64,000 nt of DNA. Origin: Candidatus Omnitrophota bacterium. GTDB lineage: Bacteria; Omnitrophota; Gorgyraeia; JAZDFF01. Location: positions 2,015 through 66,014 of the forward strand of contig JAZDFF010000015.1 of assembly GCA_043808095.1 (NCBI GenBank). Reading direction: 5' to 3'. Below are positions 3,174-56,539 of the stretch, in pieces. The stretch's first letter is position 1. Every line of letters starts with the position of its first letter. Both the position numbers and the translations under genes were made by a program. The notes below the pieces were generated by a model. It searched no databases. It was not told the origin of the DNA and was given only the letters and a program-made list of their open reading frames with translations.

Positions 3174-3558
3174 ATGACTTCTATTGCCATATTGCTAAAT
3201 TGTCAACGCTTCGTATACCCCGATGGCAAGCATCGGGGCTTGTTTTCTGAATATTCAGTTCTTCTTGGGCATCCTCAGTGTTGACACTGAGAGCGACAAG
3301 CCCTTGCTTTTCTTTTGTGCCTTCGGCACATCGGCTCTTAAGTCCCCAAGGTCAAGCCTTGGGACTTGTCGCCGAATGTGTCAAATTGATAACTTTAAAC
3401 AATACAGCAGTTTAACAGTTTAACAATATGAAAATTCTTTATGGGCGGAAGAGGATTTTCCCGCTACAATAAGTTATTAGCTTGTTGGCGGGATCCCGAA
3501 GATATTCTTACGAAGTTTCTGCATTCGGGAGAACCTTCTTTCGCTATTTAGTCATTCT

Positions 3559-3640
3559 TGCGGACGGAGGGAATTGAACCCCCATGAGTTTCCCCATATG
3601 GTCCTAAGCCATACGCGTCTGCCAGTTCCGCCACGTCCGC
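3559..3640 (-). tRNA. tRNA-Leu (anticodon UAG), long variable arm
   Basis: Reverse complement folds with GCGGACG acceptor, 3-bp D-stem, UAUGG-CUUAGGA-CCAUA anticodon arm, long variable arm and GGGGG-UUCAAUU-CCCUC T-arm. 82 nt. Confidence 0.75.
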
Positions 3641-3717
3641 GCTAAATCTGCTGTCCCTCGCAGACAACTTTTGCACCGTCTCTACTCGGGATTAAAATTT
3701 TATTTCTAAAATTTTAA

Positions 3718-3790
3718 TGAGCCACCCGCGGCTCGAACGCGGCACACCCACCTTAAAAGGGTGGTGCTCTACCAGATGAGCTAGTGGCCC
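3718..3790 (-). tRNA. tRNA-Lys (anticodon UUU)
   Basis: Reverse complement gives GGGCCAC acceptor (one G-U pair), CCACC-CUUUUAA-GGUGG anticodon arm and GCCGCG-UUCGAGC-CGCGG T-arm. 73 nt. Confidence 0.75.
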
Positions 3791-13501: not shown

Positions 13502-13924
13502 TTAAAGATTATTTACAATTCTTTTTATATCCAGTCTTTTCTTAGCAAAATTTAATATCAGCCCTAGCCTCTTATTTGTTGTTTTAAGATAAGATATCAT
13601 TTGCGCCTCATGTATTTCATTTATTTCCGATACAGATTTTAACTCTATCATAACTTCATTTTCTATCATAAAATCTATACGTTGATACCCCAATTCTAAG
13701 TTTTTATAATGAACTCCTATATTTGCTTCTTCTACAAAATTAATCCCATTCTTTTTTAATTCATAGACAAGGGCTTTCTGATATATCTTCTCTACAAAAC
13801 CCGGGCCTAGATTCTTATGGACTTCAATTGTCAAACCAATTATCTTTTTACTGAGAGTATTGATTTCATCCTCAGTCATCCTGGTCATCTTTGCGATCTT
13901 TGCGGTTGCAATCTTTTTATACAT
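13502..13924 (-). CDS. GxxExxY family protein (PD-(D/E)XK-like)
   Basis: 140 aa. Signature LGPGFVEKIYQKAL (G-x-x-E-x-x-Y). A paralog lies at 61028..61402. Confidence 0.7.
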   Translation of the reverse strand: MYKKIATAKIAKMTRMTEDEINTLSKKIIGLTIEVHKNLGPGFVEKIYQKALVYELKKNGINFVEEANIGVHYKNLELGYQRIDFMIENEVMIELKSVSEINEIHEAQMISYLKTTNKRLGLILNFAKKRLDIKRIVNNL

Positions 13925-14646: not shown

Positions 14647-14678
14647 TGATGCCCGTCTTATTAAACGGGCATCTTCGC
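14647..14678 (-). terminator. Possible hairpin terminator (gatgcccgtttaataagacgggcatc) after the small ORF at 14803..14985
   Basis: 8-bp GC-containing inverted repeat followed by an A/T-rich tract on the minus strand. The U-tract is not clean. Confidence 0.3.
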
Positions 14679-14802: not shown

Positions 14803-14985
14803 CTATTTCTTCTTCTGTCCTTCTAATAGCATCATAGTTATGCCCAACAGGAGAAAGGTATTGGTCAGAATTAAAAGCGATTGCGACGCTACCCCATAGA
14901 CCGGATTCATAGTCACGCGAGAAATCGCTGCCACTAGAAGTAAAATCATCGCTGCTACTACAAATAGATTAGAAATTCCTTTCAT
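14803..14985 (-). CDS. Small hydrophobic (2-TM) protein, hypothetical
   Basis: 60 aa, two predicted TM helices and a lysine tail. No recognisable family. Confidence 0.3.
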   Translation of the reverse strand: MKGISNLFVVAAMILLLVAAISRVTMNPVYGVASQSLLILTNTFLLLGITMMLLEGQKKK

Positions 14986-15194
14986 ATCTAATCCTCCTTT
15001 CCTTTATAAATAGGGCTTCACAAAAATCGTTCAGCCCTTGATTACAGAGATTAAGAATAGATTCCAAAGATTAGTATTCGAAGATAAATCGCTGTAATCT
15101 TTTTTAAAATCACTGGAATCATAGGCTGGAACGACTTTCATGACAGCCTATTATAAACCTACTTTAGTTATTATATAAATATATATAGCCTGTG

Positions 15195-17024
15195 TCAATT
15201 GTTTTCTTTATGGACCTTATCCTCATTTGAGGCGGTATTTAGCCTGGCCCCAGAAGCAGCGGTCGCAGATTCTATATAAAGATTGGGGTAGTCAAAAAGA
15301 TCAACTGGGCGGCCTTTTTCCAATTTACTTCCAGAAGGGCTATAAAGGATATTTAAAAAGCGCGGAAAACCGCTTTCAACATCAACTACTTCAGCAATCT
15401 CCTGGTTATTGAGCTTGACCAGACTTCCTATAGGATAAACAGAAATTTTTTCCACTAAGGCCTTTACTATATTGGGATCAAATAATCTAACTGTCTCATT
15501 TTTAATCACCTTCATTGCCTCATAAGGGCTAACCGCTTCTTTCCAAGGCCGAAGATGGGTCATCTCCTCAAAGGCGTCGCACACAGAAACAATTTTTACC
15601 GAATCCTGTAATTGGTCTGCCTTAAGCCCTTCTGGATAACCGCTGCCGTCCAGGCGCTCATGATGGGAAAAAGCAATACTCCTTACTATTTCAGGAAGAA
15701 ATTTTGCCTGCTCCAAAATTTGCTTTGAATAAACGGGATGCTTCTTAAGTTCTTCATGTTCGTGCTGGAGTAATATAGCGGACTTTAAAATAATGCCTTT
15801 AAATCTAACAAACCCGATATCATGCAGGAACGTACCCCTTCCTAAATCAGTGAGTTCCTGAAGATCAAACCCCAGCTTTATTCCAACTATAAGGGAAAGT
15901 ATAGTCACATTTAATATATGGCAATATAAATACGCCTGTTCGTTATCCTTGTTGGCCAATTTTATTAAATTGCGATCGTCTTTTTTTAGCGCCTCGATTA
16001 ATTGCTCGATAAAAAGATCAACGGCCTTATAATCCAATAACTCATCTTTTTCTGCGCGATTAAATATGTTTTCTGCCAAAACAAGGCCATTGTGATAAAA
16101 CTGCTCAGCCTCCTTTTCATTTCCTTGCGCCTTAAGAGGTTGTTTTGCTATCTCCTCCTGCCTGGGGGTAGATATCTTTTTATCTTGGCCGTGCCTGGTA
16201 ATTTCAACGCCTAAAGTCGAGGTCTGGGCCTGGATAATGCCAACATCGATTATCGTGGCTTTGTGAGTGAATCCTGTCAGGAGGCTTAACTCACAAATAC
16301 GATTTATGCGCCGAGGAATCCCGCCGCTAGATTCATAAATAACAGAGACAGCCTCGGGTGTAAAAATAGGCTCTTTTCTTCCAGCAACAGCCAAGCGGTG
16401 ATCAATGTAATTTTTTGTCTCATCATAATTTAAGGCATCGAGATGGCTTTTTACGGCAATCCTCTGTTCAAATTGTTTTATGCCATCGATCTTTTGTCTT
16501 AAATCGGATTGACCAACCAATATCAACGTTAGCAGGAATTTATCCATAAGTTGAAAATTTAAAAGCATGCGTAACTGTTCAAAAATCTTAGGATCATCTA
16601 TGATATGGGCCTCATCAATAATTACAATGGTATTTTTACCATCATCATGGTTGTTGTATAAAATATTCTTGATGCTCTCAAGGGCCAGGGATTCCGCAAA
16701 AGAGGATGCCCCGGACTTATGAATCAGGTCTTTATCGCCAAGGCTCATTCCAATATTAACTAAATTTTCTGCAGAGGTTGAGCGGGGATGGGTAATAAAG
16801 GCAACCCTGAATTTCTCGGGGTTCAATTCCTTTAAAAGGGCATTGGCAATAACCGTCTTACCGCAACCAAATATCCCGGTAAGCATGGCCGCGCCCAACA
16901 TCTCCTGCGCGCAATAGGTCAATTTTAATAAGGCATCCTTGTGCTGGGGAGAGTAATAAAGAAACTTGGGATCCGGGCTGTTACGGAAAGGTTTCTCGGT
17001 TAGGCCCCAATATGCTTCATACAT
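15195..17024 (-). CDS. ExeA/GspA-like AAA ATPase (PEP-CTERM/EPS-locus type) fused to a C-terminal HD-GYP c-di-GMP phosphodiesterase domain
   Basis: 609 aa. The N-terminus MYEAYWGLTEKPF...GIFGCGKTV (Walker A) matches the three shorter paralogs in the window. The C-terminus carries FLHDIGF ... HHERLDGSGYPEGL ... VCDAFEEMTHLRPWK, i.e. the HD and GYP motifs. Confidence 0.8.
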   Translation of the reverse strand: MYEAYWGLTEKPFRNSPDPKFLYYSPQHKDALLKLTYCAQEMLGAAMLTGIFGCGKTVIANALLKELNPEKFRVAFITHPRSTSAENLVNIGMSLGDKDLIHKSGASSFAESLALESIKNILYNNHDDGKNTIVIIDEAHIIDDPKIFEQLRMLLNFQLMDKFLLTLILVGQSDLRQKIDGIKQFEQRIAVKSHLDALNYDETKNYIDHRLAVAGRKEPIFTPEAVSVIYESSGGIPRRINRICELSLLTGFTHKATIIDVGIIQAQTSTLGVEITRHGQDKKISTPRQEEIAKQPLKAQGNEKEAEQFYHNGLVLAENIFNRAEKDELLDYKAVDLFIEQLIEALKKDDRNLIKLANKDNEQAYLYCHILNVTILSLIVGIKLGFDLQELTDLGRGTFLHDIGFVRFKGIILKSAILLQHEHEELKKHPVYSKQILEQAKFLPEIVRSIAFSHHERLDGSGYPEGLKADQLQDSVKIVSVCDAFEEMTHLRPWKEAVSPYEAMKVIKNETVRLFDPNIVKALVEKISVYPIGSLVKLNNQEIAEVVDVESGFPRFLNILYSPSGSKLEKGRPVDLFDYPNLYIESATAASGARLNTASNEDKVHKENN

Positions 17025-17240
17025 TTGTAAATTCCTTTATCCAACTAATTTTTAGTATCGGATGCATACGGATTTTAGCGCCTGCCTGCCGGCAGGCAGG
17101 GATTCGGGCGGATAAATTCTTATCCGCGACATCCGTAACCATCCGTTTGAATCCGTGATAAAACATTTGAGTTATTAACTGGTCTGATGTATTTTCATAA
17201 GGTTGTTCGGTTAACCCCCAATATGCTTCATACATATTTA
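17025..17240. repeat. ~215-bp leader repeat (copy A): RBS + palindrome cctgcctgccggcaggcagg (17081..17100) + duplicated first ~20 codons of the ATPase gene (MYEAYWGLTEQPYENTSDQ)
   Basis: Near-identical to 19958..20172. The fragment ATG sits 2 nt after the Wzc stop codon. Confidence 0.7.
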
Positions 17241-19133
17241 TTTTTTGCCCTCTTTTTCTTTGCCATAATAGCGGTATTGATAATAGTAATAATGAGAATG
17301 GACCATCTCGGACTGCGGAGTAATACAATTTAAGACAACGCCTTTAACCTGGGCACCGGTAGATTCTAATTGTACCTTTGACCTTAGTAATGCACTCCTT
17401 GGAGTCCTGCCCACATGATAAACCAATATCACCATATCCGCCTTTTGCCCGATAATGGATGCATCAGTAACCGATAGAACAGGAGGAGAATCAAATAAGA
17501 TAATATCATAATTTGTCTTTAGTTCTTCAATTAAGTTATTCATTTGATTTGAGCTCAATAAAGTCGGCGGATGACCGTGTAATTGACCGGCTGTTAAGAT
17601 ATGTAATTTATTCAGGCCAGGAACTTTTAACGCCTTATCCCATTCCACAGAGCCCATAAGGATATCGGTAAAATTATTTACAGACTCGTTAAATTTTGCC
17701 TTTCCGCTTAAGATGTCGGTTAGGCCGGATCCGACTTTTAAACCAAAAAGATTATGTAAAATAGGCCGTCTTAAATCAGCATCTATGAGGATCACCCTCT
17801 TGCCTCTTTGGGCGATAGCCATGGCAAGATTAGCGACAGTCAGAGATTTTCCTTCTCGCGGAGCTGTCGAGGTAATAAGTATTGATTTTGCATTTTCTTT
17901 ATTTTGAAAAGTTGACCAGACATTAGTCTCTAAAATATTGTAGGCCTCGGCAAGGGTAGATTCTCTCGAAGTATTCATTAGCAATTTGTCCTTCATCTCT
18001 TTAACCTCTTGCGAATAGCTGATACGGCCATGGGGCCAAAACATTACCCGCGGCCTCTTAATATGCTCCAAAAAGGGGATTATTCCCAGTACAGGCAATT
18101 TTATAATATTTTCCACGTCCTCAATAGTGCCGATAGAGGTATCCAAGTTCTCAACTACGAAGGCAAGGATAAAACCAAGCATTAATCCCATTAACGAGCC
18201 TGCAGTAAGATTCAGGCGTTTGTTTGGACTGATAGGATGCTTGGGTTCAGTGGCCTGGCTTACCAGCGTAACATCTGAAGCCTTTTCTGCCTCAGCAATT
18301 CTGGCAGCTTCAAACTTTTCTCGCAGCATCCGGTAGGTCTGCTCACTTATCTGGGCATCTCGCTTCAGGCGGGCATATTCCAGTTCACTGGCGGGAAGAG
18401 TCTTGGTCTGTTCTTCTAACTGGCTAATCTCTTCTTTCAGGCGAATTATCTGAGGATGTTTCTCAGTAGCTTTGGTAATGAGTTCGCTAATCTGGCCTTT
18501 TAATTCGGCAATTCTTTTTTCAAGTTCGACGGCCACTCCTGTAACAGCCTCTTTTTCTTTAAAGACCTTTAACCTTTCTTCTGCCTGATTTAATTCCTTC
18601 TCTACTGCGGCGAGTCTTTCTTGAATGAACTGACGGGTTTCGCTTAACTCTTTGCGTTTTTGGTTTAAATTTTCCTCCATATAGACCTGGATAGTCATAT
18701 TGGCAATACGGGTTATCAGGCGAGGGTCGCTGCCCGTTACAGATATCCGGATAATATTGGTGTCTTTCATCTTATCGGCAGAAACACTCCTCTGAATATC
18801 TCCAATAATTGTCTCTTTATCCTTATCAGGCGTCTTTTCGCCAATCAAGCCGAGTTTTTTAGCCACATCTTCAGCCATCTTACGGCCTTCAATAACCTTT
18901 ATTTCAGTGTCTAAGGGGTCACCCCGTGTCCAGGAAACCCTTTCTAAAATAGTGCTAATAACTGTCTTTCGTTGCTCATACCTTACAGCTGCGGAAGTCT
19001 GAAATACAGTTGGCTGCGTCTTCGTATAAAACGCCGCTAATAAAAACGAGATAAGAAAAGCAGAGATAATAACGACCTTTCTTTTACGCAATATCCTTAG
19101 ATAATCCTGAAAATTTAATTCGTATTGGGGCAT
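17238..19133 (-). CDS. Polysaccharide co-polymerase / BY-kinase (Wzc-like chain-length determinant with C-terminal tyrosine autokinase)
   Basis: 631 aa. N-terminal Wzz domain with a coiled coil, P-loop ITSTAPREGKSLTVANLA, a DxD motif and a C-terminal tyrosine cluster HSHYYYYQYRYYG. Confidence 0.8.
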   Translation of the reverse strand: MPQYELNFQDYLRILRKRKVVIISAFLISFLLAAFYTKTQPTVFQTSAAVRYEQRKTVISTILERVSWTRGDPLDTEIKVIEGRKMAEDVAKKLGLIGEKTPDKDKETIIGDIQRSVSADKMKDTNIIRISVTGSDPRLITRIANMTIQVYMEENLNQKRKELSETRQFIQERLAAVEKELNQAEERLKVFKEKEAVTGVAVELEKRIAELKGQISELITKATEKHPQIIRLKEEISQLEEQTKTLPASELEYARLKRDAQISEQTYRMLREKFEAARIAEAEKASDVTLVSQATEPKHPISPNKRLNLTAGSLMGLMLGFILAFVVENLDTSIGTIEDVENIIKLPVLGIIPFLEHIKRPRVMFWPHGRISYSQEVKEMKDKLLMNTSRESTLAEAYNILETNVWSTFQNKENAKSILITSTAPREGKSLTVANLAMAIAQRGKRVILIDADLRRPILHNLFGLKVGSGLTDILSGKAKFNESVNNFTDILMGSVEWDKALKVPGLNKLHILTAGQLHGHPPTLLSSNQMNNLIEELKTNYDIILFDSPPVLSVTDASIIGQKADMVILVYHVGRTPRSALLRSKVQLESTGAQVKGVVLNCITPQSEMVHSHYYYYQYRYYGKEKEGKK

Positions 19134-19141: not shown

Positions 19142-19957
19142 TTAGGCCTCTAAATCTGCAGCTGCCTCTTCAATAATAGGAGAATCGATTAGCGCCAGCT
19201 TCCTGCCAAATCCAGTAAGTAAAGCTAAATCACAGATATTGTTTATCCTGCGAGGTATTCCGCCTGATTTTTCATATATTGTATTAAGCGCTGAATCATT
19301 AAATAAAGGGGCGTGTCTTCCGGTAATCAATATACGGTGTAATATGTATTTGACTGTATCTTCGCGATTCAACTTATCTAAATAACAACGGATAGCGATC
19401 CTCTGGGCTAAGGGCTTATTGGCCTCAACAATCTCTTTTAATTCCGGTTGACCCAAAAGTAAAAGGGTAAGCAAAAACTTATCCTCCAGCTGGAAATTTA
19501 AAAGTAATCTCAGCGCTTCCCATACTTGTTCGTCACGGATAATATGCGCTTCATCAACAATAACTACCGTCCGCCTGCCGTCCTTGGCGTTATTGACCAA
19601 TATATTATTTAATGTATCTACTACTACGTTCGCCAGGACTTCAGTCTTTTTTGTAGGCAGGTCCTTTGCCCCAAGACCAGCAGCTATAGCCATCAGAAGT
19701 TCTATATAATCAAATTGGGGGTTAGCCACAAATGCAATCCTGTATACGTCCCTGCCCAGTTCTTTTAATAAGGTCCTGCCTAAAAGGGTCTTGCCGCAAC
19801 CAAAAACCCCGGTCATAATCGCCGACCCCTTTTGTTCTCTTACCGCATAAAGTAAACGCGATAGCCCTTCTTCATGTTGCTGCGAATGATACAAGAACCT
19901 GGGATCAGGCGTATTCTCAAAAGGTTTTTCTGTTAATCCCCAATACGATTCGTACAT
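19142..19957 (-). CDS. ExeA/GspA-like AAA ATPase (EPS-locus secretion ATPase family)
   Basis: 271 aa. MYESYWGLTEKPF... Walker A GVFGCGKT and Walker B VVIVDEAH. Confidence 0.75.
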   Translation of the reverse strand: MYESYWGLTEKPFENTPDPRFLYHSQQHEEGLSRLLYAVREQKGSAIMTGVFGCGKTLLGRTLLKELGRDVYRIAFVANPQFDYIELLMAIAAGLGAKDLPTKKTEVLANVVVDTLNNILVNNAKDGRRTVVIVDEAHIIRDEQVWEALRLLLNFQLEDKFLLTLLLLGQPELKEIVEANKPLAQRIAIRCYLDKLNREDTVKYILHRILITGRHAPLFNDSALNTIYEKSGGIPRRINNICDLALLTGFGRKLALIDSPIIEEAAADLEA

Positions 19958-20172
19958 CTACAAATTCCTTTATTCAACTTATTTTTAGTATCGGATGCAT
20001 ACGGATTTTAGCGCCTGCCTGCCGGCAGGCAGGGATTCAAGCGGATAAAATAACTTAATCGCGACATCCGTAGCCATCCGTTTGCATCCGTGATAAATAA
20101 CCCTTTAGTTATTAACTGGTGAGAGGTATTCTCAAAAGGCTTCTCAGTCAGGCCCCAATATTGTTCATACAT
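19958..20172. repeat. ~215-bp leader repeat (copy B) with palindrome at 20014..20033 and duplicated gene-start fragment (MYEQYWGLTEKPFENTSHQ)
   Basis: Aligns with 17025..17240 along its whole length. Differences in the coding-like part are mostly synonymous. Confidence 0.7.
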
Positions 20173-20232
20173 CTTTTAATACACGAATTCCACGAATTGC
20201 CACACTAATATTCACTTCCCCCATTCAGTGGA

Positions 20233-22981: not shown

Positions 22982-24022
22982 TTAACATATCTTTTTAATT
23001 ACCTCAATAACTCTTTTTTGTTCATTGGGTTTAAGGGACGGATATATCGGTATAGAGACTGCCGAATTCCAGGCAGCCTCTGCTCGGGGGTAGCTGCGTT
23101 GGCCTAAATATTTATGCAAAAGTTTGTATACAGGTCTTTCGCAGATAACATTGTTTCTTTTTAGAAAATTTAATGCCTTCCTCAGGTCTTTTTTAATCCT
23201 AATTACATAACGGAAATAGATATGTCCTTTCGTAGATTTCGGTGAATCGAAATCACAATTAGAAAACGCCTTATTATACCTTCTAGCTAAATATCTTCTT
23301 TGGTTAATAAATTTATCTAATTTTTTAAGTTGGCTCATACCGAGTGCCGCCTGAATATCAGTCATCTTATAGTTGAACCTTAGCTTGAATGATTTTTTCT
23401 TATCGTAATCCCTGAGATCTCGGACTTTGTCTAATAAGCTTAAGTTGTTAGAAAATACCATCCCGCCTTCTCCTGTTGTAAGTAATTTGGTGGTATAGAA
23501 TGATGTCATGCTTAGATCCCCAAAGGTCCCAACCTTTCTACCAGAATATTCAGCTCCAATTGCCTGGGCACAATCTTCAATTACAGGTATTCCTAACTTT
23601 CTAAAAGGCAATATATCTACGGGTGAACCAAACATATGGCTGACGATTATCGCTTTAGTTTTTCTAGTCAGCTTCTTCTTGGTATCAATAAATGAAATAT
23701 TAAAATCGTCGGCGTCAATATCTGCAAATTTAGGTCTGGAACCTACATACAAAATAGCGTTTAAGACAGCGCTACATTGATAGGTAGACAAAATCACCTC
23801 ATCTTTTTCCTTTATACCAAGTGCGAGAAAGCAAAGATGTAAAGCGGATGTTCCAGAGTTAACTACCAACGCACCTTTAACATCCAGATATTTAGCAAAA
23901 CGCTTCTCAAACTCAAATACAAATTTCCCTTGACTTATATGTCCAGATTCTAAAACTGCTAAAACGCAATCAATATCATCTTTAGAAAGCGTAGGCCTAG
24001 AATGAGGAATCATTCTCTGCAT
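22982..24022 (-). CDS. DegT/DnrJ/EryC1/StrS-family sugar aminotransferase (PLP)
   Basis: 346 aa. Family-typical layout with SFYTTKLLTTGEGG (active-site Lys region). Confidence 0.8.
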   Translation of the reverse strand: MQRMIPHSRPTLSKDDIDCVLAVLESGHISQGKFVFEFEKRFAKYLDVKGALVVNSGTSALHLCFLALGIKEKDEVILSTYQCSAVLNAILYVGSRPKFADIDADDFNISFIDTKKKLTRKTKAIIVSHMFGSPVDILPFRKLGIPVIEDCAQAIGAEYSGRKVGTFGDLSMTSFYTTKLLTTGEGGMVFSNNLSLLDKVRDLRDYDKKKSFKLRFNYKMTDIQAALGMSQLKKLDKFINQRRYLARRYNKAFSNCDFDSPKSTKGHIYFRYVIRIKKDLRKALNFLKRNNVICERPVYKLLHKYLGQRSYPRAEAAWNSAVSIPIYPSLKPNEQKRVIEVIKKIC

Positions 24023-24708
24023 CTGGATTTCCTTAAAATAGAAAGGCTTTCTTTACCCTGATTAAACAACAGATCTACAATTGACAGGTTTTCTATGAAT
24101 GGCTGTTTTTTCTCATAAAGTTGTTTATATCTGGGGTGTCGGAAATCCTGGAAAATAAGCTCTATGCCTTGTTTCTTAAATTTCTCTGTCTCAAGATAGA
24201 GGCGGCCTCCTTCGCCAGAAAGATAGGTATCGGCACCCAAGTTCTTACAGATATTTATTAGATGTTCAGTTGCCAAGCCTGGTTGTTTTAGGTCGCAAGA
24301 TCTTACCAATTTAGTCTTTATCCCCAATATTTTGACAATACTTTTGATTATGCTGATATTTAATTCAGATAAATAAGTCCATCTTTCGCTATAGACCGTT
24401 TTAAAAAAATCAATGTAATCGCCAAAGTATGGCGCCTTATTATAATTTATAATAAGTGCATTGAGGTGCTGCCTTGGCCAATCAATATCGTTGTTTATTG
24501 TGACTGCTCTTATCTGTTGGGGAAATTTGTGCATTACGGGAACGCTGACCCATTGCCAATCCTTAGATGTCTTTATTTTATTGCGATTCTGCCATTCGTT
24601 TTTTTTGAATTGAACGTCATCCAGAAATACAAACATGTCCGACCTATCTATCTTGTCAAAATATCCTAACCAAGGAAGGTATTGGGGTTGATGAATAGAA
24701 ATAATCAT
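24010..24708 (-). CDS. WbqC-like family protein
   Basis: 232 aa. IHQPQYLPWLGYFDKI...FLDDVQF is characteristic of the WbqC-like family found in O-antigen clusters. Confidence 0.65.
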   Translation of the reverse strand: MIISIHQPQYLPWLGYFDKIDRSDMFVFLDDVQFKKNEWQNRNKIKTSKDWQWVSVPVMHKFPQQIRAVTINNDIDWPRQHLNALIINYNKAPYFGDYIDFFKTVYSERWTYLSELNISIIKSIVKILGIKTKLVRSCDLKQPGLATEHLINICKNLGADTYLSGEGGRLYLETEKFKKQGIELIFQDFRHPRYKQLYEKKQPFIENLSIVDLLFNQGKESLSILRKSRCRE

Positions 24709-26246
24709 TTTCTCTTAACAAAAATGGGGTTGGAAACTATCTCCGAGGGACTGTCTATCAATAATCTATAAAAACTTTTAATTCTATCTCTTGGCACATC
24801 ATCCCGAATCTGGAATTCAAATTTTTCCTCTCCAGTCTCGAATATCTTGAATAGCTGTCCGTTTTTAATCAACCTTATTTTAACCGGTGATCGATCAATA
24901 TTCGGTCGATAACCTTTTATATTGATATTAATATCGTTAAAAAGTTGATCGCTATTTATCAGGGAATTTTCCGCCGAATCTCTTGCCTTAACATCAACAT
25001 GTAATTCTCCGCCCATATATGCGATTTGGTTAGTTTTGTTATTTTTTATAGAGAATTCTGTTAATATAACTTCGTTTTTGTTGCCCCAGATGGCATATAG
25101 CCTGCCTTTTTTTAGCGCATCAAGAACTTCATTTTTATTAAATTCTTTTAGAAATAAAACATTATGGATATAATCTATTTCCCCTTCACCTTGGAAACCT
25201 GTCTCGCCGATTCCCCAAACGGCCCTATCTCGCTGGCCCAGACAATATTCATTTAGCAATTCATCCCATTCAGCACCCGCCTTATGCATTGTTCTAGAAT
25301 CTCCGTAAATAACGCTAAATCCCGTATAGCCAGAACTATCAAAAAGGTCTTCTTTATGGGAAAGCGTAGAAAAATGTATGCCTGCGATATTATTTTGAAC
25401 ACAAGATTCAACAGACAACCAGAAACTTAAGGCGTTATGAAGATTAGCATAATCGATTAGCCTTTGATAAGGCAAAATTTTCTTATCACCGTGGTAAGGA
25501 TCAAACTCAGCAGGAACCGTAAAAGGAAAATTATTTATTAAAGACATTGTGCTGATAATAATTACAATTATACTTGTACCCCTTGCCAGAAAATTTATAC
25601 AGGAAAAATCTCTTCCTAGGTCATCCACATATTCAAATTTCTTCTTGCGAAAAAGATAAATTCCTAAAAAAAGAGTAAATATCGGCCACAGCTGCACCAA
25701 ACTCTTAAAACCATACTTTAGTTTTTTATACTTATTGGATATTGTGGGTAAATTCCGGTAATCACTTGCATTATCTAGGCCTATAACGATTAATTGTTTA
25801 CTCCAATCATGTACTGTCAACTCTCCTTTTAAAAAAGAACATTTCCACCAATAGAAAGGCGCTACCTCGCATCCGGGTATAATCAGAACCTGAGGATTTT
25901 CTTTATTTGCCTTACCTATTAAATCTAAATATCTCTGTGCACCAAATTTAAGGATACTATCTTTCTCTCGGACTTTCCGTATAAGCATGCGAAACGGCCA
26001 AATACCAAATTCACCACGGGCTAAAGCCTGGTCTGTCAAAATTAAGACACTCACATTAGATTCTTTGGCATATTTAGCTAATTGGTCAATAGAACACGTA
26101 CCTGCGCTGACATTGGAGTTAACCCCAATAACTGCCTTTACCCTGATAAATTCTTCTGCAGAGGCATCATTGATTAGACAAAATAGAAAACAAAATAAAT
26201 AAGATAAAATTATGAGGCTATCTTTCTTGGGAAAGTAAGTCATCAT
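24705..26246 (-). CDS. Hypothetical exported/membrane-anchored protein
   Basis: 513 aa with an N-terminal signal-like segment and one internal hydrophobic segment. No confident family; possibly a metal-dependent (PHP-like) hydrolase. Confidence 0.35.
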   Translation of the reverse strand: MMTYFPKKDSLIILSYLFCFLFCLINDASAEEFIRVKAVIGVNSNVSAGTCSIDQLAKYAKESNVSVLILTDQALARGEFGIWPFRMLIRKVREKDSILKFGAQRYLDLIGKANKENPQVLIIPGCEVAPFYWWKCSFLKGELTVHDWSKQLIVIGLDNASDYRNLPTISNKYKKLKYGFKSLVQLWPIFTLFLGIYLFRKKKFEYVDDLGRDFSCINFLARGTSIIVIIISTMSLINNFPFTVPAEFDPYHGDKKILPYQRLIDYANLHNALSFWLSVESCVQNNIAGIHFSTLSHKEDLFDSSGYTGFSVIYGDSRTMHKAGAEWDELLNEYCLGQRDRAVWGIGETGFQGEGEIDYIHNVLFLKEFNKNEVLDALKKGRLYAIWGNKNEVILTEFSIKNNKTNQIAYMGGELHVDVKARDSAENSLINSDQLFNDININIKGYRPNIDRSPVKIRLIKNGQLFKIFETGEEKFEFQIRDDVPRDRIKSFYRLLIDSPSEIVSNPIFVKRK

Positions 26247-27390
26247 ACAGGTTTTTAAATTTACTTAACATTAAATCGGATGAAAAGTTTTCAAGAACCC
26301 ATTTTTTTGCTTCCTTTGCCATATCATTATATAATTCTCTATCTTTTAATAACCCGATTATCGCTTCGGCTAAGGCATAACTATCTTTTGGCGGCACTAA
26401 AATTCCTGTAATTTTATCTAAAACGACTTCTGGAATACCTCCTACCTTAGTAGCTACAACCGGCTTTCCTAAAATTCCTGCCTCAAGTAATACTAAGCCA
26501 AAACCCTCATTTAAAGATGGTAATGCAATTAAATCAGAAATAGAGATTATTTCTATGACATCCTCTCTTTCACCTAAAAAGTTAACTACATTAAAAATAT
26601 TTAATTTTCTGGCTGCATTCTCTAACTCTTTTTTTAACGACCCATCTCCCACAATTAATGCTTTAGCTTGCGGGAATTGTCTTATTATTTCTTTCATTGC
26701 TTCCCAAAAATAAATATGGCCTTTTACCGGCTCCAGTCGCCCTACCATAGTGACTAAATAATCTTCTTCCAAAAAATGTAGTTCTTCCCTCTTAGCTGAT
26801 TTATCTACTTTAATATTAAGGTTTTTATCCAATTCTATGCCATTATGGATGCTGATAAACTTATTATCTTTTGCTATACCGAATTTTATATGTTCGTTCT
26901 TGCCGATTTCTGTAAGGGTGACTATTTTATCTGTTATGTAAGCTGTCAACTTCTCCAAAAAGATAAAGAGATCCGTTTTTAATCTGCCGAAGTATCCGTA
27001 GAAAATATGTCCGTGCGGCATATGAACGACTATATGAACGCCGGCCAATCTTGCTGCCCATCGGCCAAGGATGCCTGCCTTTGAGGTGTGGGTATGCACA
27101 ATTTGAGGTCTTTCTTTTTTTAAAACAGAATATAATCTAAAAAAACTAATCAAATCCAAAAAAGGATTAGGATTGCGTCTAAGTTGATTTATAAAAATAA
27201 TCTGGATGCCTGTCTGACTTGAAAATCTATCCAAATCTTCTTGGGGATCTTTAGTAAGACCGCTGATAATCTTTACAAGGTAATCTTGCCTATTCAAGAA
27301 TTTAGCCAGCTCTAAAACAATCTTAGAAGATCCGCCTTTATCCAGGCGGGTGATAATCTGAATTATATTTATTTTTTCCATTTGACACAA
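26218..27390 (-). CDS. Glycosyltransferase family 4 (GT-B)
   Basis: 390 aa with the EGFGLVLLEAGILGKPVVAT motif (E-x7-E region). Confidence 0.75.
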   Translation of the reverse strand: MCQMEKINIIQIITRLDKGGSSKIVLELAKFLNRQDYLVKIISGLTKDPQEDLDRFSSQTGIQIIFINQLRRNPNPFLDLISFFRLYSVLKKERPQIVHTHTSKAGILGRWAARLAGVHIVVHMPHGHIFYGYFGRLKTDLFIFLEKLTAYITDKIVTLTEIGKNEHIKFGIAKDNKFISIHNGIELDKNLNIKVDKSAKREELHFLEEDYLVTMVGRLEPVKGHIYFWEAMKEIIRQFPQAKALIVGDGSLKKELENAARKLNIFNVVNFLGEREDVIEIISISDLIALPSLNEGFGLVLLEAGILGKPVVATKVGGIPEVVLDKITGILVPPKDSYALAEAIIGLLKDRELYNDMAKEAKKWVLENFSSDLMLSKFKNLYDDLLSQER

Positions 27391-27392
27391 AT

Positions 27393-28568: not shown

Positions 28569-28785
28569 AACTCCTTATAAAATTATTTAATCTTAAGATA
28601 AAAATCCTCACCATAAATTGCTACAGAGGACTAAAGTAATTTCTACATGAAAATAGTAAATACCCGAACTTTACGATAGAGTTAATTATTGAATTTAATA
28701 AGACTAAATACAGACAACGAAAAAAATTGATATGTTAAAGAACGGGTTAAAATTTAATTTTTAGCAATACTTTTTAAGGATGTCG

Positions 28786-30333: not shown

Positions 30334-30356
30334 TCTTTAAGTTAATAATTTATTAA

Positions 30357-33354: not shown

Positions 33355-33363
33355 TGTTTGGTA

Positions 33364-35354: not shown

Positions 35355-35356
35355 TG

Positions 35357-38428: not shown

Positions 38429-38451
38429 ATTTGATTTTTATTTTATAACAT

Positions 38452-40430: not shown

Positions 40431-40444
40431 AGTTTAACTTTAAA

Positions 40445-51788: not shown

Positions 51789-53726
51789 TTAAGTATCGGT
51801 GAGTCTCTTACCCGAATCTTCAGAGTCTTCACTGGAATAATAGTATTTATATTTATAATGATAATATGGATAATAGCTGCTTTGGATTTCTGTCTCGGGC
51901 TGGGTATGATTTAAGACCACGCCTAACATCTTTGCACCCGCCGACTCTAGTTGTACCTTTGTGCGTAAAAGTGCTGCCCTGGCAGTACGGCCAACCTCAT
52001 AGACTAAAACCACCCCGTCTAACTTTGGCGAAAGAATTACTGCATCGCTGATAGATAGGGCAGGAGGAGAGTCAAAAAGCACCAGATCAAAATCGCTTTT
52101 TAGTTCCCTAATTATATCGGACATTACAGTAGAACCTAATAGTTCGGCCGGGTTAAGAGGAATATGGCCCGAACTTAAAATCTTCAGATTATCCAATCCG
52201 GGCGTCTTTAGCGCCTCGCTAATGTCAACCTTGCCAACTAAGATATCAGATAGGCCCCTTAGCGCCTCCTTTAATTTTAATGTTCCCGAGATGACTTCCG
52301 ATAAACCGGGATCGCGCTCTACTCCAAATACCCTTGCTATCGTAGGTCTCCTTAAGTCCGTATCTACGATAACTACCTTTGTGCCCATTTGAGCAAAGAT
52401 AAGACCTAGACTCACCAAGACAGTGGTTTTTCCTTCCCTAGGACCGGTGGAGGAAAAAAGTATTGTCTTTTGACTAGGGTTTATCTTAAGATTAGTTCTT
52501 AAGATACGGTAGGCCTCAGAAACCGGAAGATGAGGATGGTATTGAACAGTTAAACAAGTGGCAGAGAAATCTAATGTCTGGCTTGTTTCTTTTTTCCTAA
52601 ATCTTAAACTAAAAAAATGCCCTTTCTGTCTCTTTTTTAAATTCTCCCTCTCTTGTAATCTTACGGAAGGAATAATTCCCAATACAGGCAAGTTTATAAG
52701 TTTTTCTACATCTTCGATTGTGCCGATAGAGGTATCTAAACTTTCTGTCACAAAGGTAAAAATTAGTCCAAGCATAATTCCCATCAAAGAACCCACAATT
52801 AAATTTAGGCCTTTATTTGGCTTAATAGGATAAGATGGTTCGATAGCCTGATTTATAGGCGTAACATCCGGGGTTTTTTCAGCCTCAGCAATACGGGAGG
52901 CTTCAAATTTTTCTCTGAGCATCCTGTATGTCTGTTCATTTATTTCCTTATCTCGATTTAGACGTGCATATTCAAGTTCACTGGCAGGCAAAGTCTTGTT
53001 CTGTTCTTCTAATTGACTAATCTCTTCTCTAAGCCGGATTATCTGAGGATGTTTTTCGGTAGCCTTGGTAAGGAGTTCGCTGGCCCGGCCTTTTAATTCT
53101 ACCAATCTTCTTTCGAGTTCAATGGCTACTCCTGTAACGGACTCTCTCTCTTTAAAGGCCTTTAATTTCTCTTCTGCCTGATTCAGCTCCTTCTCTACTG
53201 CAGCAAGCCTCTCTTGGACAAATTGGCGGGTCTCTGTTGCCTCTCTGCGTTTCTGGTTCAAATTTTCATCTATATAGACCTGCACAGCCATATTGGCAAT
53301 ACGGGTTATCTTTTTCGGGTCACTACCAGTTACAGATATATTAATTATATTGGTATCCTTTAGCTTCTCAGCAAAGATGCTTCCCTGAATATCGCTAATA
53401 ACTGCCTTTTTTTCATTATCAGACATTTTCTCATCAACAAAACCCAGCCTTTTAGCCGCCTTTTCTGCAACTTTACGGCTCTGAATGACATTTATCTCGG
53501 TATCTAAAGGGTTTCCCGGTCGAAAGTACATCTCCTCCACAAGGGCACCAATTACGGTCTTTTTTTGTTCATACCTTACGGTTGCAGAGGTCTGAAATAC
53601 GACGGGCTGCATCTTTGTATAAAATACTGTCAATACAAGCGAAATAAGAAAAGCGGAGCCAATGAGAATCCTTCTTTTTCGAAATATCCTAAGATAATCC
53701 TGGAAATTTAATTCGTATTGGGGCAT
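51789..53726 (-). CDS. Polysaccharide co-polymerase / BY-kinase (Wzc-like), paralog of 17238..19133
   Basis: 645 aa. Identical N-terminus MPQYELNFQDYLRI, P-loop FSSTGPREGKTTVL and C-terminal Tyr cluster YYPYYHYKYKYYY. Confidence 0.8.
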   Translation of the reverse strand: MPQYELNFQDYLRIFRKRRILIGSAFLISLVLTVFYTKMQPVVFQTSATVRYEQKKTVIGALVEEMYFRPGNPLDTEINVIQSRKVAEKAAKRLGFVDEKMSDNEKKAVISDIQGSIFAEKLKDTNIINISVTGSDPKKITRIANMAVQVYIDENLNQKRREATETRQFVQERLAAVEKELNQAEEKLKAFKERESVTGVAIELERRLVELKGRASELLTKATEKHPQIIRLREEISQLEEQNKTLPASELEYARLNRDKEINEQTYRMLREKFEASRIAEAEKTPDVTPINQAIEPSYPIKPNKGLNLIVGSLMGIMLGLIFTFVTESLDTSIGTIEDVEKLINLPVLGIIPSVRLQERENLKKRQKGHFFSLRFRKKETSQTLDFSATCLTVQYHPHLPVSEAYRILRTNLKINPSQKTILFSSTGPREGKTTVLVSLGLIFAQMGTKVVIVDTDLRRPTIARVFGVERDPGLSEVISGTLKLKEALRGLSDILVGKVDISEALKTPGLDNLKILSSGHIPLNPAELLGSTVMSDIIRELKSDFDLVLFDSPPALSISDAVILSPKLDGVVLVYEVGRTARAALLRTKVQLESAGAKMLGVVLNHTQPETEIQSSYYPYYHYKYKYYYSSEDSEDSGKRLTDT

Positions 53727-53738
53727 ATTGGAATGGTA

Positions 53739-54773
53739 TTAAAATCCCAAAGTCTGAAGCTGGGTCGCAACAGAGGAGGCTTTGTATATAGGATCGATTA
53801 GTTGTGTAAGGAAGTAATTTAGATTAGCAATAAATTTTTTAGGCACATAGATTATGTCTTCGGGCTGGGTTAAAAGGTCACTACTCACCTGGCCTTTATC
53901 AATGGCCCTGGTTAGATTAACACGTCGTATCTCTGGATTAAATGGGGCCCCTCGGATAATAATTACGCTATTTAAAACTGCATGCTCAGAAAAACCGCCG
54001 GCTAAGGCAATCGCCTCTAAGATATTGGCTATACCTGTTGGCTTGTATACACCGGGATTTTTTACTTCACCCAAGACAATGATCTTTTTGCCTCCTATCT
54101 GTTTTAATGATATGGAAACTTTGGGGGATGAGAGCAAATCTTTTAATTTTTCTGTTAAAGTACCGGAAAGTTCATTAAGGCTGAGGCCCTCGGCTTGAAC
54201 ATCGCCTAATAGGGGAAGGCTTATTTTACCATCGGGACGCACCATTAATTCTTTGGATAAATCCTCAACTTTTTCAAATCCCACCCTTCTTTTACCAAAT
54301 TCCTGTACCATTACCGAAACCTCAGGCGACTTAATAAACTCCTTAAGTTTTTCTGTTAAAATCCCGTCTAATTCGGTTAAGGTAAGGCCCTCTGCATAGA
54401 TATCATCTACGAGAGGAAAAGAAATCTTGCCGTCTGGCCGGACAATCACAATCTTGGCTAAATCTGGCCACTGCCAGACAGATATATCTAAGACATCTCC
54501 GGTTGAAATAGTATATTCATTTTCAGGCCCCTTTTCTTTTGCCTTCTCCAATCGACCAAACCCCTGCCAGACACCAACCTCTAAAATATCCTCCGGGCCA
54601 ATTTTATATTCGAAAGGTTTAGGCTGTTCTTCCTGAGACTGAGACAATTCTGTTTCTATCTTCTTAATCTCGGATTCAATCTCGGACTCTAAGACGGGAT
54701 TAGCAGTAACGCAGCCTAAAAATGATAGGGCAAAAATTATTAAAAGACAGGATTTATATTTATTTTTATACAT
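53739..54773 (-). CDS. Polysaccharide export outer-membrane lipoprotein (Wza/Poly_export + SLBB family)
   Basis: 344 aa. Lipobox LSFLGC, Poly_export motif YKIGPEDILEVGVWQ and two SLBB-like repeats (VRPDGKISFPL / VRPDGKISLPL). Confidence 0.75.
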   Translation of the reverse strand: MYKNKYKSCLLIIFALSFLGCVTANPVLESEIESEIKKIETELSQSQEEQPKPFEYKIGPEDILEVGVWQGFGRLEKAKEKGPENEYTISTGDVLDISVWQWPDLAKIVIVRPDGKISFPLVDDIYAEGLTLTELDGILTEKLKEFIKSPEVSVMVQEFGKRRVGFEKVEDLSKELMVRPDGKISLPLLGDVQAEGLSLNELSGTLTEKLKDLLSSPKVSISLKQIGGKKIIVLGEVKNPGVYKPTGIANILEAIALAGGFSEHAVLNSVIIIRGAPFNPEIRRVNLTRAIDKGQVSSDLLTQPEDIIYVPKKFIANLNYFLTQLIDPIYKASSVATQLQTLGF

Positions 54774-54857
54774 TATTTATTTAACTATAATATACACAAT
54801 CACTTAGGCCCTGTCAAGCAAAATGAAATTCAAAATACGACGAGCCTTAGTGAGCAA

Positions 54858-55670
54858 TTAGGTAAAGCTTTCTATCTCATCTTTTATGATTATTTCATCA
54901 ACAACAGAGGCCTTTTCTATAAATCCGGTTAAAAGACCAAGATCGCAGATACGGTTAATCCTGCGCGGTATACCTCCAGAGAAATCAAAAATAGTTTTTA
55001 ATGCTTCTTCTGTAAAAATTGGAGCGTCTCTTCTACTTACTTTAAGTCGATGAAGAACGTAGTTCTTTGTCTCTTCTTGGTTTAAGGCGTTTAAATAACA
55101 TTTTATCGCTATCCTTTGTTCAAAAGGTTTATTGTCTTCGATCTTTTGCCTCAATTCTGGCTGGCCGAATAACAACAGGGTTAAAAGAAATCTATTCTGT
55201 TGGTGAAAGTTTAAAAGAAGCCTCAATTCATTAAAAACCTGGTCATCCTGAATGATATGCGCCTCATCAACAATAATCACGGTATCTTTACCTTCCCGGT
55301 AATTTGCCATGAGGATATTTTCTAAAACCTCGTGTAGATAATCCGTAGAGATTTCTGTTTTTTTAGTGGGCAGTTCTATCTCTTTTAAGTTCCTTACAAT
55401 TGCCCTAAGTAGATCGACATACTCCAATTGGGGATTGGTAATGGATGCTACTTGGTAATGCTCTTTCTTGAGTTCATCAAAGATAGCCTCGGCCAAAACA
55501 GTCTTTCCGCAACCAAAAATTCCGGTTAGCATAGCTGCCCCCACTCGTTCCTTAATAGCATAAAGCATGCGCGATAAGGCCTCTTGGTGCTGATTAGAAT
55601 AGTAAAGAAAACGCGGGTCAGGGGTATTTTGAAATGGCTTCTGATTTAGGCCCCAATATTCTTCGTACAT
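54858..55670 (-). CDS. ExeA/GspA-like AAA ATPase (EPS-locus type)
   Basis: 270 aa. MYEEYWGLNQKPFQNTPDPRFLYY, GIFGCGKT and IIVDEAH. Confidence 0.75.
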   Translation of the reverse strand: MYEEYWGLNQKPFQNTPDPRFLYYSNQHQEALSRMLYAIKERVGAAMLTGIFGCGKTVLAEAIFDELKKEHYQVASITNPQLEYVDLLRAIVRNLKEIELPTKKTEISTDYLHEVLENILMANYREGKDTVIIVDEAHIIQDDQVFNELRLLLNFHQQNRFLLTLLLFGQPELRQKIEDNKPFEQRIAIKCYLNALNQEETKNYVLHRLKVSRRDAPIFTEEALKTIFDFSGGIPRRINRICDLGLLTGFIEKASVVDEIIIKDEIESFT

Positions 55671-55744
55671 ATTATTTTAACTTACTCACTTACTCATTAT
55701 AATAAAGATTAACGAAATTGTCGAATAAAACAATCATTTAGATT

Positions 55745-56539
55745 CTATTCAAAACCTTTTATCTCTTCTTGAACAATATCATCGTCTATAAGGTCAAACT
55801 TTTTGATAAATCCTGCCAAGAGGCACATATCGCATAGACGGTTAATTCTACGTGGTATACCGCCAGAATAATTGTAGATTGAACGAAGGGCTCTTTCAGA
55901 AAAAATCGCGGCTGTGCGATTGGCAACCTGCAAGCGGTGAACAATATATTTTATGGAATCTTCCGGGGTTAAGCCGTCTAAATGGGCCTTTACATTAATC
56001 CTCTGCTCTAATTGTATATTCTCTTCAATTTTCTGCTTTAATTCTGGCTGGCCCAAAAGCAATAATGTTAAAAGAAATCTGTCTTGCAGTTGAAAATTTA
56101 AAAGCAGCCTTATTTCTTCAAAGACATTCTCGTCATTTATGGCGTGTGCCTCATCAATAATAACTACGGTTTGTTTACCGTTTCGCATATTGTTTAATAA
56201 CGCGTCATTAAGAATGTTCAAAACATCTGCTTTTCTTAGGGGGGCAGGATTGCCTAATTGATAAAGAATCATCCTTAAAAGCTCGATATCATCGAGCTTG
56301 GGATTAGCTATAAAGGCAGTTTTATACTGCTCGCTGCTGAGTTCCTTTAATACTGCTTGAGCAAGCATAGTCTTACCACAGCCAAATACACCCGTAAGCA
56401 TAGCTGCGCCCATCTTCTCTCTTACGGTATAGATAAGACGCATTAATGATTCCTCGTGTTGACTTGAACGATAAAGAAAACGCGGGTCAGGGGTATTTTG
56501 AAATGGCTTCTGATTTAGGCCCCAATATGCTTCGTACAT
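55745..56539 (-). CDS. ExeA/GspA-like AAA ATPase (EPS-locus type)
   Basis: 264 aa. MYEAYWGLNQKPFQNTPDPRFLY, GVFGCGKT and VIIDEAH. Confidence 0.75.
   Translation of the reverse strand: MYEAYWGLNQKPFQNTPDPRFLYRSSQHEESLMRLIYTVREKMGAAMLTGVFGCGKTMLAQAVLKELSSEQYKTAFIANPKLDDIELLRMILYQLGNPAPLRKADVLNILNDALLNNMRNGKQTVVIIDEAHAINDENVFEEIRLLLNFQLQDRFLLTLLLLGQPELKQKIEENIQLEQRINVKAHLDGLTPEDSIKYIVHRLQVANRTAAIFSERALRSIYNYSGGIPRRINRLCDMCLLAGFIKKFDLIDDDIVQEEIKGFE

Follow-up and report, generated by a model that had tools for sequence, protein, structure and literature searches.

The 64,000-nucleotide stretch of DNA analysed here (hereafter the window), part of contig JAZDFF010000015.1 of a Candidatus Omnitrophota bacterium, carries on its minus strand a gene that joins an ExeA/GspA-like AAA+ ATPase module to an HD-GYP module and that lies at the end of a polysaccharide island. 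This fusion gene is, in the list of open reading frames (ORFs), a frame of 609 codons without interruption (15195-17024), and its product matches the Pfam families AAA_22 (residues 45-178, E 5e-15), HD_5 (residues 359-519, E 1.9e-20) and HD (E 4.9e-13), as well as the NCBIfam model TIGR03015, 'XrtA/PEP-CTERM system-associated ATPase' (residues 1-260, E 1.1e-56, 192.3 bits). The motifs MYEAYWGLTEKPF, GCGKT (53-57), DEAH (137-140), LHDIGF (400-405), HHERLDGSGYP (454-464) and VCDAFEEMTHLRPWK (481-495) are all in frame. Thus, the architecture put forward in the original prediction, an ExeA-like AAA+ domain followed by an HD-GYP domain with the hallmarks of both, is borne out by the family matches and by every motif. 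The protein is cytoplasmic, consists of two modules and has no predicted transmembrane segment.

The fusion is a real gene, neither a chance ORF nor an assembly or frameshift artefact, because 14 more full-length homologues (586-617 aa, 41-65% identity, 96-97% coverage, with the same pair of Pfam domains) were found in independent ENA, JGI, Logan and NCBI assemblies; their alignment is co-linear across the module junction. An identical protein is deposited at NCBI as 'MAG: HD domain-containing phosphohydrolase [Candidatus Omnitrophota bacterium]', and all fusion members with an organism name belong to Candidatus Omnitrophota (three are NCBI-named). The original prediction had suggested a search for such fusions across genomes, and an exhaustive hidden Markov model (HMM) and profile search of 1.84 billion cluster representatives yielded at least 19 clusters at 50% identity that carry both modules, with diverged fusions reaching down to 24% identity. 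A scan of the GTDB species genomes gave no fusion among the best 80 loci; one long match in that scan (L081) was considered and rejected, as it consists of tandem HD-GYP genes. The possibility that adjacent ExeA-like and HD-GYP genes were merged by a sequencing or assembly error deleting a stop codon, which had been named as a danger at the outset, gains something from the fact that the split arrangement is real in relatives, with the genes 2 nt apart or overlapping. However, the fused forms, 15 of them close and at least 19 diverged, stem from separate samples and different assemblers and have co-linear linkers, and the N-terminus MVRMSDILKK that is usual in stand-alone HD-GYP genes is missing from the fused proteins, so that the chance of such an artefact is practically negligible. 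One protein of 408 aa (P0124) is of a different build, as its first ~90 residues resemble the N-terminus of Wzc (MPQYELNLRDYWQI...) and run straight into a linker and HD-GYP module that are those of a fusion relative; it is either a deletion variant or a chimeric assembly. An assignment of the fusion protein to an anti-phage defence ATPase/HD system was also tried with PADLOC and rejected, the sole match being mad8 at 22.7 bits, a similarity at the level of the P-loop.

The N-terminal module had been described as a paralogue of three stand-alone ATPases of the same locus, and BLASTP against all window ORFs agrees with this, giving 53%, 51% and 50% identity over ~270 aa to the products of 54858-55670, 55745-56539 and 19142-19957, respectively. 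The motifs by which the module belongs to the ExeA/GspA family (AAA_22, COG3267-type), MYEAYWGLTEKPF (for [YF]xxxxGLxxxPF), GIFGCGKT (for GxxGxGKT) and IDEAH (for DEA[HQ]), are invariant in the family alignment; among the 30 fusion representatives, the GK[T/S] of Walker A is present in all 30, and the D[E/D] of Walker B and the GIPRR motif are kept in nearly all. Foldseek matched the module to the AAA+ proteins ORC/Cdc6, MuB and TnsC, and in the model proposed below it would be bound to ATP and, like its structural relatives, probably oligomeric. The best-known proteins of this type are ExeA/GspA of Aeromonas hydrophila and MshM of Vibrio cholerae, accessory ATPases of type II secretion and of the MSHA pilus. 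With these the fusion shares the N-terminal YxxxWGLxxxPF, an AAA_22 core with Walker A, Walker B and GIPRR, and an association with outer-membrane multimeric channel systems, one distant fusion (P0277, in L089) being encoded in a secretin-containing Tad locus. Unlike Aeromonas ExeA, it has no transmembrane segment or periplasmic peptidoglycan-binding domain and ends in an HD-GYP module instead; PF01471, the peptidoglycan-binding domain, has no match in the fusion protein, in which the linker and HD-GYP module come after residue 268, and PF01471 or SPOR domains are present in some database relatives. The neighbours also differ from those of ExeA/GspA, being Wzc and Wza rather than GspB and a secretin, and neither a secretin family nor a GspB family was matched by the scanned window ORFs (almost every one of 120 aa or more).

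TIGR03015 is the family that best matches this module and likewise the three paralogues, with E 1e-56 to 3e-66, and its matches span ~260-270 residues of a model of 269 positions that includes no HD-GYP domain. The window resembles TIGR03015 loci in its operon layout of ATPase, Wza and Wzc, and its Wza (53739-54773) scores 183.1 with the sister model TIGR03027, above the cut-off of 180. However, the fusion (192.3 bits) and the paralogues (211-224 bits) fall short of the TIGR03015 cut-off of 324.5 bits, and no exosortase family member was matched among the scanned ORFs of the 64-kb window.

An AlphaFold model from the 14-sequence alignment (mean predicted local distance difference test, pLDDT, 78.6) resolves five regions: the AAA+ alpha/beta core with its lid (1-268), a stretch with pLDDT below 50 (269-300), three stalk helices (303-357), the HD-GYP core (to ~527) and five beta strands (535-588). 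The C-terminal module, to which the original prediction had assigned ~200 aa, is in fact ~300 aa long and comprises stalk helices, HD-GYP core and SH3-like tail, that is, a complete protein of the stand-alone type. Its Foldseek matches are PmGH (4mcw) and DvhD's HD-GYP domain (9rbz). The spacing between the two modules varies across the family from ~36 aa in the window protein to ~363 aa in P0129; the linkers of the distant fusions P0129 (839 aa) and P0132 (779 aa) measure ~240-360 aa, and in P0129 the ATPase is separated from the HD-GYP module by a predicted coiled coil that is rich in E/K/A/R and highly charged. The C-terminal tail was also tried as a PilZ c-di-GMP (cyclic di-GMP) receptor, for which a beta-barrel with RxxxR and [D/N]xSxxG is expected, and this assignment was rejected. 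The features of the gene and of its surroundings are collected in Table 1.

Table 1. Positions in the window of the fusion gene, its parts and neighbouring features.
Feature	Position	Strand	Evidence and remarks
Fusion gene, complete	15195..17024	-	One unbroken ORF, 609 aa + stop codon; 100% match to NCBI protein P0001; 14 co-linear full-length homologues
ExeA/GspA-like AAA+ module, residues 1-268	16221..17024	-	AAA_22 and TIGR03015; 50-53% identity to three window paralogues
Walker A GIFGCGKT, residues 50-57	16854..16877	-	G53, C54, G55, K56, T57 invariant in alignment A1
Walker B IDEAH, residues 135-140	16605..16622	-	D137, E138, A139, H140 invariant in alignment A1
Disordered, poorly conserved linker, residues 269-302	16119..16220	-	pLDDT <50 at 269-300
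Helical stalk before HD-GYP core, residues 303-357	15954..16118	-	Predicted helices 303-325, 332-347, 351-357; also in stand-alone relatives
HD-GYP core, residues 358-519	15468..15953	-	HD_5 and HD matches; alignment to PmGH 4mcw, V-cGAP3 5z7c, PA4781 4r8z
HD-GYP key residues			H369, H401-D402, F405 (lysine position), H429, H454-H455-E456, G462-Y463-P464, D483, E486, R492, K495
SH3-like small beta-barrel tail, residues 520-590	15255..15467	-	
Structured leader before fusion gene	17025..17237	-	Decoy copy of first 15 codons, then hairpin with CCTGCCTGCCGGCAGGCAGG
Wzc-like co-polymerase / tyrosine autokinase	17238..19133	-	Directly upstream of fusion; Wzz, GNVR, AAA_31 domains, C-terminal Tyr cluster (Pfam, NCBIfam)
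Stand-alone ExeA-like paralogue, 271 aa	19142..19957	-	TIGR03015 211 bits; upstream of Wzc-like gene; 50% identity to N-terminal module
Island head	51789..56539	-	ExeA-like 55745-56539 and 54858-55670; Wza 53739-54773; second Wzc 51789-53726

Among solved structures, the best sequence match of the HD-GYP module is PmGH, a GAF-HD-GYP protein of Persephonella marina (4MCW, E 1.5e-19) and the structural reference for phosphodiesterases of the biofilm signal c-di-GMP. Aligned with it, the fusion protein shows the HD dyad (H401-D402), the HHExxDGxGYP motif (H454-H455-E456...G462-Y463-P464) and seven of the eight PmGH metal ligands, H369, H401, D402, H429, H454, H455 and D483 standing for PmGH H189, H221, D222, H250, H276, H277 and D305. 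Substitution of the metal-binding HD residues or of the GYP motif, which would have spoken against the original prediction, is therefore not what we see in this protein. Shared as well are the GYP tyrosine and R314/K317, since the RxY[K/R] guanine-recognition motif, which confers c-di-GMP specificity (10.1101/2021.11.05.467447), reads R492-P-W-K495. The differences from PmGH lie in E185, the acidic third-metal ligand of the E/D-T-G subfamily, which is Tyr365 (Y-L-Y), in K225, the lysine of HDxGK, which is Phe405, and in D308, which is Glu, as well as in the N-terminal partner, an ATPase rather than a GAF sensor, and in the added SH3-like tail. Tyr365 places the module in the 'Y/F' subfamily, for which a binuclear rather than a trinuclear site is predicted, and the module resembles PA4781 and other enzymes of that class (Bellini et al. 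2014; Rinaldo et al. 2015) in this tyrosine and in the seven of eight ligands kept. Unlike PA4781, which is REC-regulated and keeps the HDIGK lysine, the subfamily of the fusion never has this lysine.

The missing lysine is a family trait and not a private mutation. Its position is occupied by Met, Leu, Phe or Ile in 30/30 fusions, by Met, Leu or Ile in all 51 of the closest stand-alone relatives, and by Met, Ile or Thr in the HD-GYP genes adjacent to ExeA-like genes (17/17), the residue counts across the stand-alone relatives being alignment-based. Because the relatives share the Glu at the D308 position, an RxxR and the SH3-like tail, the fusion and its stand-alone relatives form a coherent and distinct HD-GYP subfamily without the HDxGK lysine. 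Otherwise the site is well kept in the fusion representatives (H369 in 30/30, HD in 26/30, GYP in 29/30, D483 in 29/30, RxxK/R in 28/30), and the stand-alone relatives retain the equivalents of D222, H250 and H277 and the GYP tyrosine in 51/51 and that of H189 in 48/51; in the RxY[K/R] motif, the fusions conserve the R position in 28/30 and the K/R position in 30/30, and the stand-alone relatives do so in 51/51 and 49/51, respectively. The HD dyad has been replaced by RD in P0014 and P0015, by HS in P0122 and by EN in P0127; HH has become EH in 11 fusions, GYP is lost in P0125, and P0144 also belongs to the proteins with losses in HD, HH or GYP.

These residues suggest that the fusion protein is likely to bind nucleotide and metal and that its HD-GYP module is likely to bind c-di-GMP, whereas efficient hydrolysis of c-di-GMP is uncertain, because the lysine whose replacement (K225A) abolishes PmGH activity (PMC4159591, Bellini et al.) is absent family-wide, the third-metal Glu is Tyr, and HD or HH is lost in several lineages. 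The claim that the gene encodes a c-di-GMP-hydrolysing or c-di-GMP-sensing domain is thus supported as far as metal ligands, GYP and RxxK are concerned; with Phe at the lysine position and Tyr at the third-metal Glu, the domain is not a textbook phosphodiesterase.

Two alternative readings of function turn on this active site. The HD-GYP module could be a receptor without turnover, in which c-di-GMP would shift the state of the stalk or dimer, switch the oligomerisation or ATPase activity of the ExeA-like module and in this way gate export. It would account for the missing catalytic lysine in 30 fusion representatives, 51 stand-alone relatives and 17 ExeA-adjacent genes and for the independent loss of HD or HH in several lineages while GYP, RxxR, fold and tail persist, and a precedent is given by DvhD, a structural match (9rbz) whose HD-GYP domain binds c-di-GMP without hydrolysis and with a rearrangement of the stalk helices (PMC13090378), demonstrating that an HD-GYP domain with stalk helices can be a c-di-GMP switch for an envelope process. 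However, DvhD is a transmembrane dCache-PAS protein in which HD has become SQ and HH has become MN, whereas the fusion keeps HD and HH; all seven binuclear metal ligands are present in the window protein and in most relatives, a pattern that one would not expect of a pure binder, given the loss of those residues in DvhD. A long disordered linker would also be a poor conduit for allosteric control of the ATPase, and we consider a receptor of this kind unlikely.

Alternatively, the HD-GYP-like module may act on 3'3'-cGAMP (3'3'-cyclic GMP-AMP), on pGpG (the linear diguanylate) or on another phosphoester, or may only scaffold the ATPase. Some HD-GYP proteins are cGAMP-specific, and V-cGAP3 (5z7c) is the second-best sequence match among solved structures; binuclear enzymes of the Y/F class such as PA4781 handle substrate differently, the subfamily has a signature of its own (Met for Lys, Glu for D308, an extra SH3-like tail), and P0125 and a gene in L165 are without even the GYP motif. 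Set against this are the retention of the c-di-GMP-linked RxxK/R in 28/30 fusions and ~50/51 stand-alone relatives, the absence of the cGAMP-associated Gln/Asn variants from both groups, and the GYP tyrosine, which hydrogen-bonds c-di-GMP and is invariant in 51/51 stand-alone relatives. We therefore regard a different substrate, or a purely scaffolding role, as improbable.

The two modules are also found as separate genes. Among 80 loci of ExeA-like relatives from a metagenome scan seeded on the family, whose ORFs were called and then classified with phmmer, 13 have co-oriented adjacent ExeA-like and HD-GYP genes, often with overlapping stop and start codons, and 2 have a fusion; where at least 1.1 kb was available on both sides of the ExeA-like gene, 10 of 38 loci contain the pair or the fusion, and several of the loci with either form also have Wza or Wzc. 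In L090, an ExeA-like gene (271 aa) ends with TAA, and after two more letters (AA) a stand-alone HD-GYP gene from the same subfamily begins with ATG, leaving 2 nt between the genes; the ExeA-like protein is 56% identical to the N-terminal module of the window protein and thus closer to it than the window's own paralogues. All 17 ExeA-adjacent HD-GYP proteins examined belong to the same subfamily as the fusion module. The window gene is thus the fused (read-through) version of a recurrent, translationally coupled two-gene module, and the existence of both fused and split versions is classical evidence that the ExeA-like and HD-GYP proteins act together. Tandem duplication of ExeA-like genes is likewise frequent, occurring at 54858-56539 of the window and in 18 gene pairs of L091-L170, which suggests hetero-oligomers or subfunctionalisation.

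The split form bears on a further alternative, namely that the AAA+ module is an input that senses ATP/ADP or machine assembly and the HD-GYP module a true phosphodiesterase that lowers cell-wide c-di-GMP, providing feedback from export to signalling. This agrees with the general view that the N-terminal domains of HD-GYP proteins provide the input by which the C-terminal enzyme is modulated (10.1101/2021.11.05.467447) and with the conservation of metal ligands and GYP, and AAA+ oligomerisation could drive the HD-GYP dimerisation required for activity. However, many relatives have the two modules on separate polypeptides, the fusions join them by a disordered linker of variable length, the HDxGK lysine is absent, and the repeated loss of catalytic residues argues against a dedicated enzyme output; in our judgement this arrangement is decidedly unlikely. 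On sequence grounds the three alternatives (a receptor only, a sensor driving an enzyme, and another substrate or a scaffold) are inseparable.

The original prediction placed the gene in a polysaccharide locus, and Pfam and NCBIfam scans of the window agree, as they delimit a minus-strand polysaccharide island of ~42 kb in which the fusion gene is last in transcription order. The island starts with two tandem ExeA-like genes followed by Wza, Wzc and Wzy, continues with two Wzx flippases, many GT4/GT2 glycosyltransferases, methyltransferases, radical-SAM enzymes and aminotransferases, and ends with an initiating GT4-family transferase, a third ExeA-like gene, a second Wzc-like autokinase and the fusion gene. 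The Wzc-like genes of the window match TIGR03007 and TIGR03018, both below the cut-offs, and a Wzc-like gene adjoins the fusion in the window and in L001/L002, L003, L004/L005, L091 and L092. Around the distant fusions P0127 and P0133 the gene order is fusion, Wza, Wzc, Wzy and Wzx, so that the fusion occupies the slot held by the stand-alone ExeA-like genes at the head of the window island. Of two other distant fusions, P0277 (L089, 4017-9791) comes last in a Tad/Flp pilus cluster with Flp, secretin, TadE and RcpC, and P0281 lies among carbohydrate-metabolism genes. The term 'exopolysaccharide (EPS)-export ATPase' used in the original prediction accordingly fits the polysaccharide locus in which the gene sits; as a label it is drawn from gene context only, and it sits less well with one distant fusion in a Tad-pilus locus and another without envelope-machine neighbours. 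BLASTP with all window ORFs detected no second HD-GYP domain in the window.

Several other features of the region were noted. The island core (24000-44000) has a markedly low G+C content, 0.32-0.37 against 0.42-0.45 in the flanks. Of the three radical-SAM genes in this core, two encode SPASM domains and the other a B12-binding domain; two further radical-SAM genes lie upstream of the island (61470-63917). Near both island ends are PD-(D/E)XK paralogues (PDDEXK_3, 'GxxExxY'; 13502-13924 and 61028-61402) with 38% identity, and three tRNA genes (3101-3790, minus strand) stand between a phosphotransferase system (PTS) EIIA gene and an frr/pyrH/tsf/rpsB housekeeping block. In related loci, a PqqD / ScmC / radical-SAM-SPASM cassette adjoins the ExeA-like, HD-GYP and Wzc genes (L001 4110-8042, L004 13722-16509, L005, L090 6376-9011); this cassette, which in places adds Transglut_core3 or Peptidase_S24, is a third and unexplained partner of the module.

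The fusion gene and the stand-alone ExeA-like gene are preceded by the same element of ~215 nt (17025-17237 and 19958-20176; repeat families D1-D3), in which a decoy of the first ~15 codons (MYEAYWGLTEQPYEN / MYEQYWGLTEKPFEN) is followed by a conserved hairpin-rich stretch and then by the real start. The reading frame past the decoy is not conserved, the hairpin stretch holds the perfect 20-nt palindrome CCTGCCTGCCGGCAGGCAGG, and the RNA fold has a z-score of -3.6. The same palindrome is found again at 1954-1973, 50 nt upstream of a ptsI-like gene. The leader was considered as a c-di-GMP or other known riboswitch and rejected as such, since the only Rfam matches in the window at gathering score are the three tRNAs. 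At the other end of the gene, a perfect sigma-70 consensus promoter (TTGACA-17-TATAAT, 12/12; 15170-15198, minus strand) overlaps the fusion stop codon, and downstream of it lie a small hydrophobic ORF of ~60 aa (14803-14985) and a terminator-like hairpin (14648-14673).

For the mechanism, including the binding partner, c-di-GMP as the ligand, its turnover and the direction of signalling, we infer a model, to which we give a probability of roughly 0.5, in which the ATPase serves as a tether that keeps a c-di-GMP phosphodiesterase or sensor at the export machine. The ATPase module would bind ATP and oligomerise at, or help to assemble, the Wzc/Wza export machine, which in one distant relative would be the secretin-based Tad pilus; the HD-GYP module would thereby be tethered and clustered at the machine, favouring the dimer that HD-GYP domains need; it would bind c-di-GMP at its metal site, probably with slow hydrolysis; and local c-di-GMP would be coupled to the state of the accessory ATPase, so that polymer export is tuned. 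Tethering fits best because the linker is variable and disordered, the two halves also occur as separate coupled genes and the ATPase motifs are conserved, and it fits better than rigid allosteric coupling since a disordered linker separates the modules by ~36 to ~363 aa. Two observations in other bacteria are consistent with this model: in Sphingomonas, a Wzy-dependent EPS requires an AAA+ ATPase whose gene lies between Wza and Wzz (PMC11340318), and in V. cholerae, a mutant in a c-di-GMP phosphodiesterase has its phenotype suppressed by insertions in the ExeA homologue mshM (PMC4624765). In the former case the ATPase, PrmE of the promonan cluster (PMC11340318), has the same position as the stand-alone paralogues here, and no HD-GYP partner has been reported for it. 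MshE and other GspE-type ATPases with an MshEN domain are similar in that a secretion or pilus ATPase reads c-di-GMP directly (PMC4624765); unlike in the fusion, however, their ATPases are of an unrelated family (PilB/GspE hexamers), and their c-di-GMP domain is unrelated, MshEN being a pure receptor without a hydrolase fold.

Other points weigh against tethering of a phosphodiesterase or sensor to the machine. The contexts of the fusions are uneven, L088 having neither Wza/Wzc nor a pilus machine and L089 being a Tad pilus locus, and all family members are known from sequence alone. To our knowledge, contact of an ExeA-like ATPase with Wzc or Wza has never been demonstrated, and the likeness to Sphingomonas PrmE is one of gene position, not of established membership in the ExeA family. 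No GGDEF, EAL or PilZ genes were found in the window and nine related loci (~116 kb), although tblastn with crude consensus queries makes this a weak negative. With respect to catalysis, the equivalent of PmGH K225 is absent in every member, and as the K225A enzyme is inactive (PMC4159591), hydrolysis may be weak or absent; catalysis is dispensable at least in those lineages that have lost HD, HH or GYP (P0014/15, P0122, P0125, P0127, P0144).

Both domains are well known, and HD-GYP domains are notoriously promiscuous in their N-terminal partners. The architecture had been put forward as one not known to be described, and this stands as regards publications: in the library searched, we found no paper that links ExeA, GspA or MshM with an HD-GYP protein or describes an ExeA-HD-GYP architecture, and no account of it in the literature on TIGR03015 or on Omnitrophota with c-di-GMP. 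The main census of HD-GYP architectures lists no ATPase partner, and the words AAA, ATPase, ExeA, GspA and P-loop are absent from it. As regards databases it needs qualification, since the JGI automatic annotation of some fusions ('HD-GYP domain-containing protein.../type II secretory...') names both halves. Nor is the fusion unique, given the clusters described above and the commoner split gene pair. What is new is an HD-GYP module partnered with an effector-type AAA+ ATPase of envelope export machines and recurring as a coupled two-gene module.

This partnership provides testable hypotheses for the role of the enigmatic ExeA-like ATPases in Wza-Wzc and PEP-CTERM-type polysaccharide loci and for a post-translational action of c-di-GMP on Wzx/Wzy-dependent export, and a sizeable HD-GYP subfamily without the supposedly essential lysine is a natural test of the proposed catalytic mechanism. 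As a tentative and rather doubtful generalization, ExeA-type AAA+ proteins may serve quite generally as cytoplasmic factors that assemble or activate outer-membrane multimeric channels, both Wza and secretins, with the 'HDxGM + SH3-tail' HD-GYP proteins as their dedicated partner subunit. If true, these proteins would form a new class of c-di-GMP receptors or trigger enzymes that are bound to a machine and have an active site independent of the lysine, and the Omnitrophota fusion would be a Rosetta stone for a checkpoint, so far unrecognised, at which c-di-GMP acts post-translationally on Wzx/Wzy-dependent polysaccharide export and on Tad pili.

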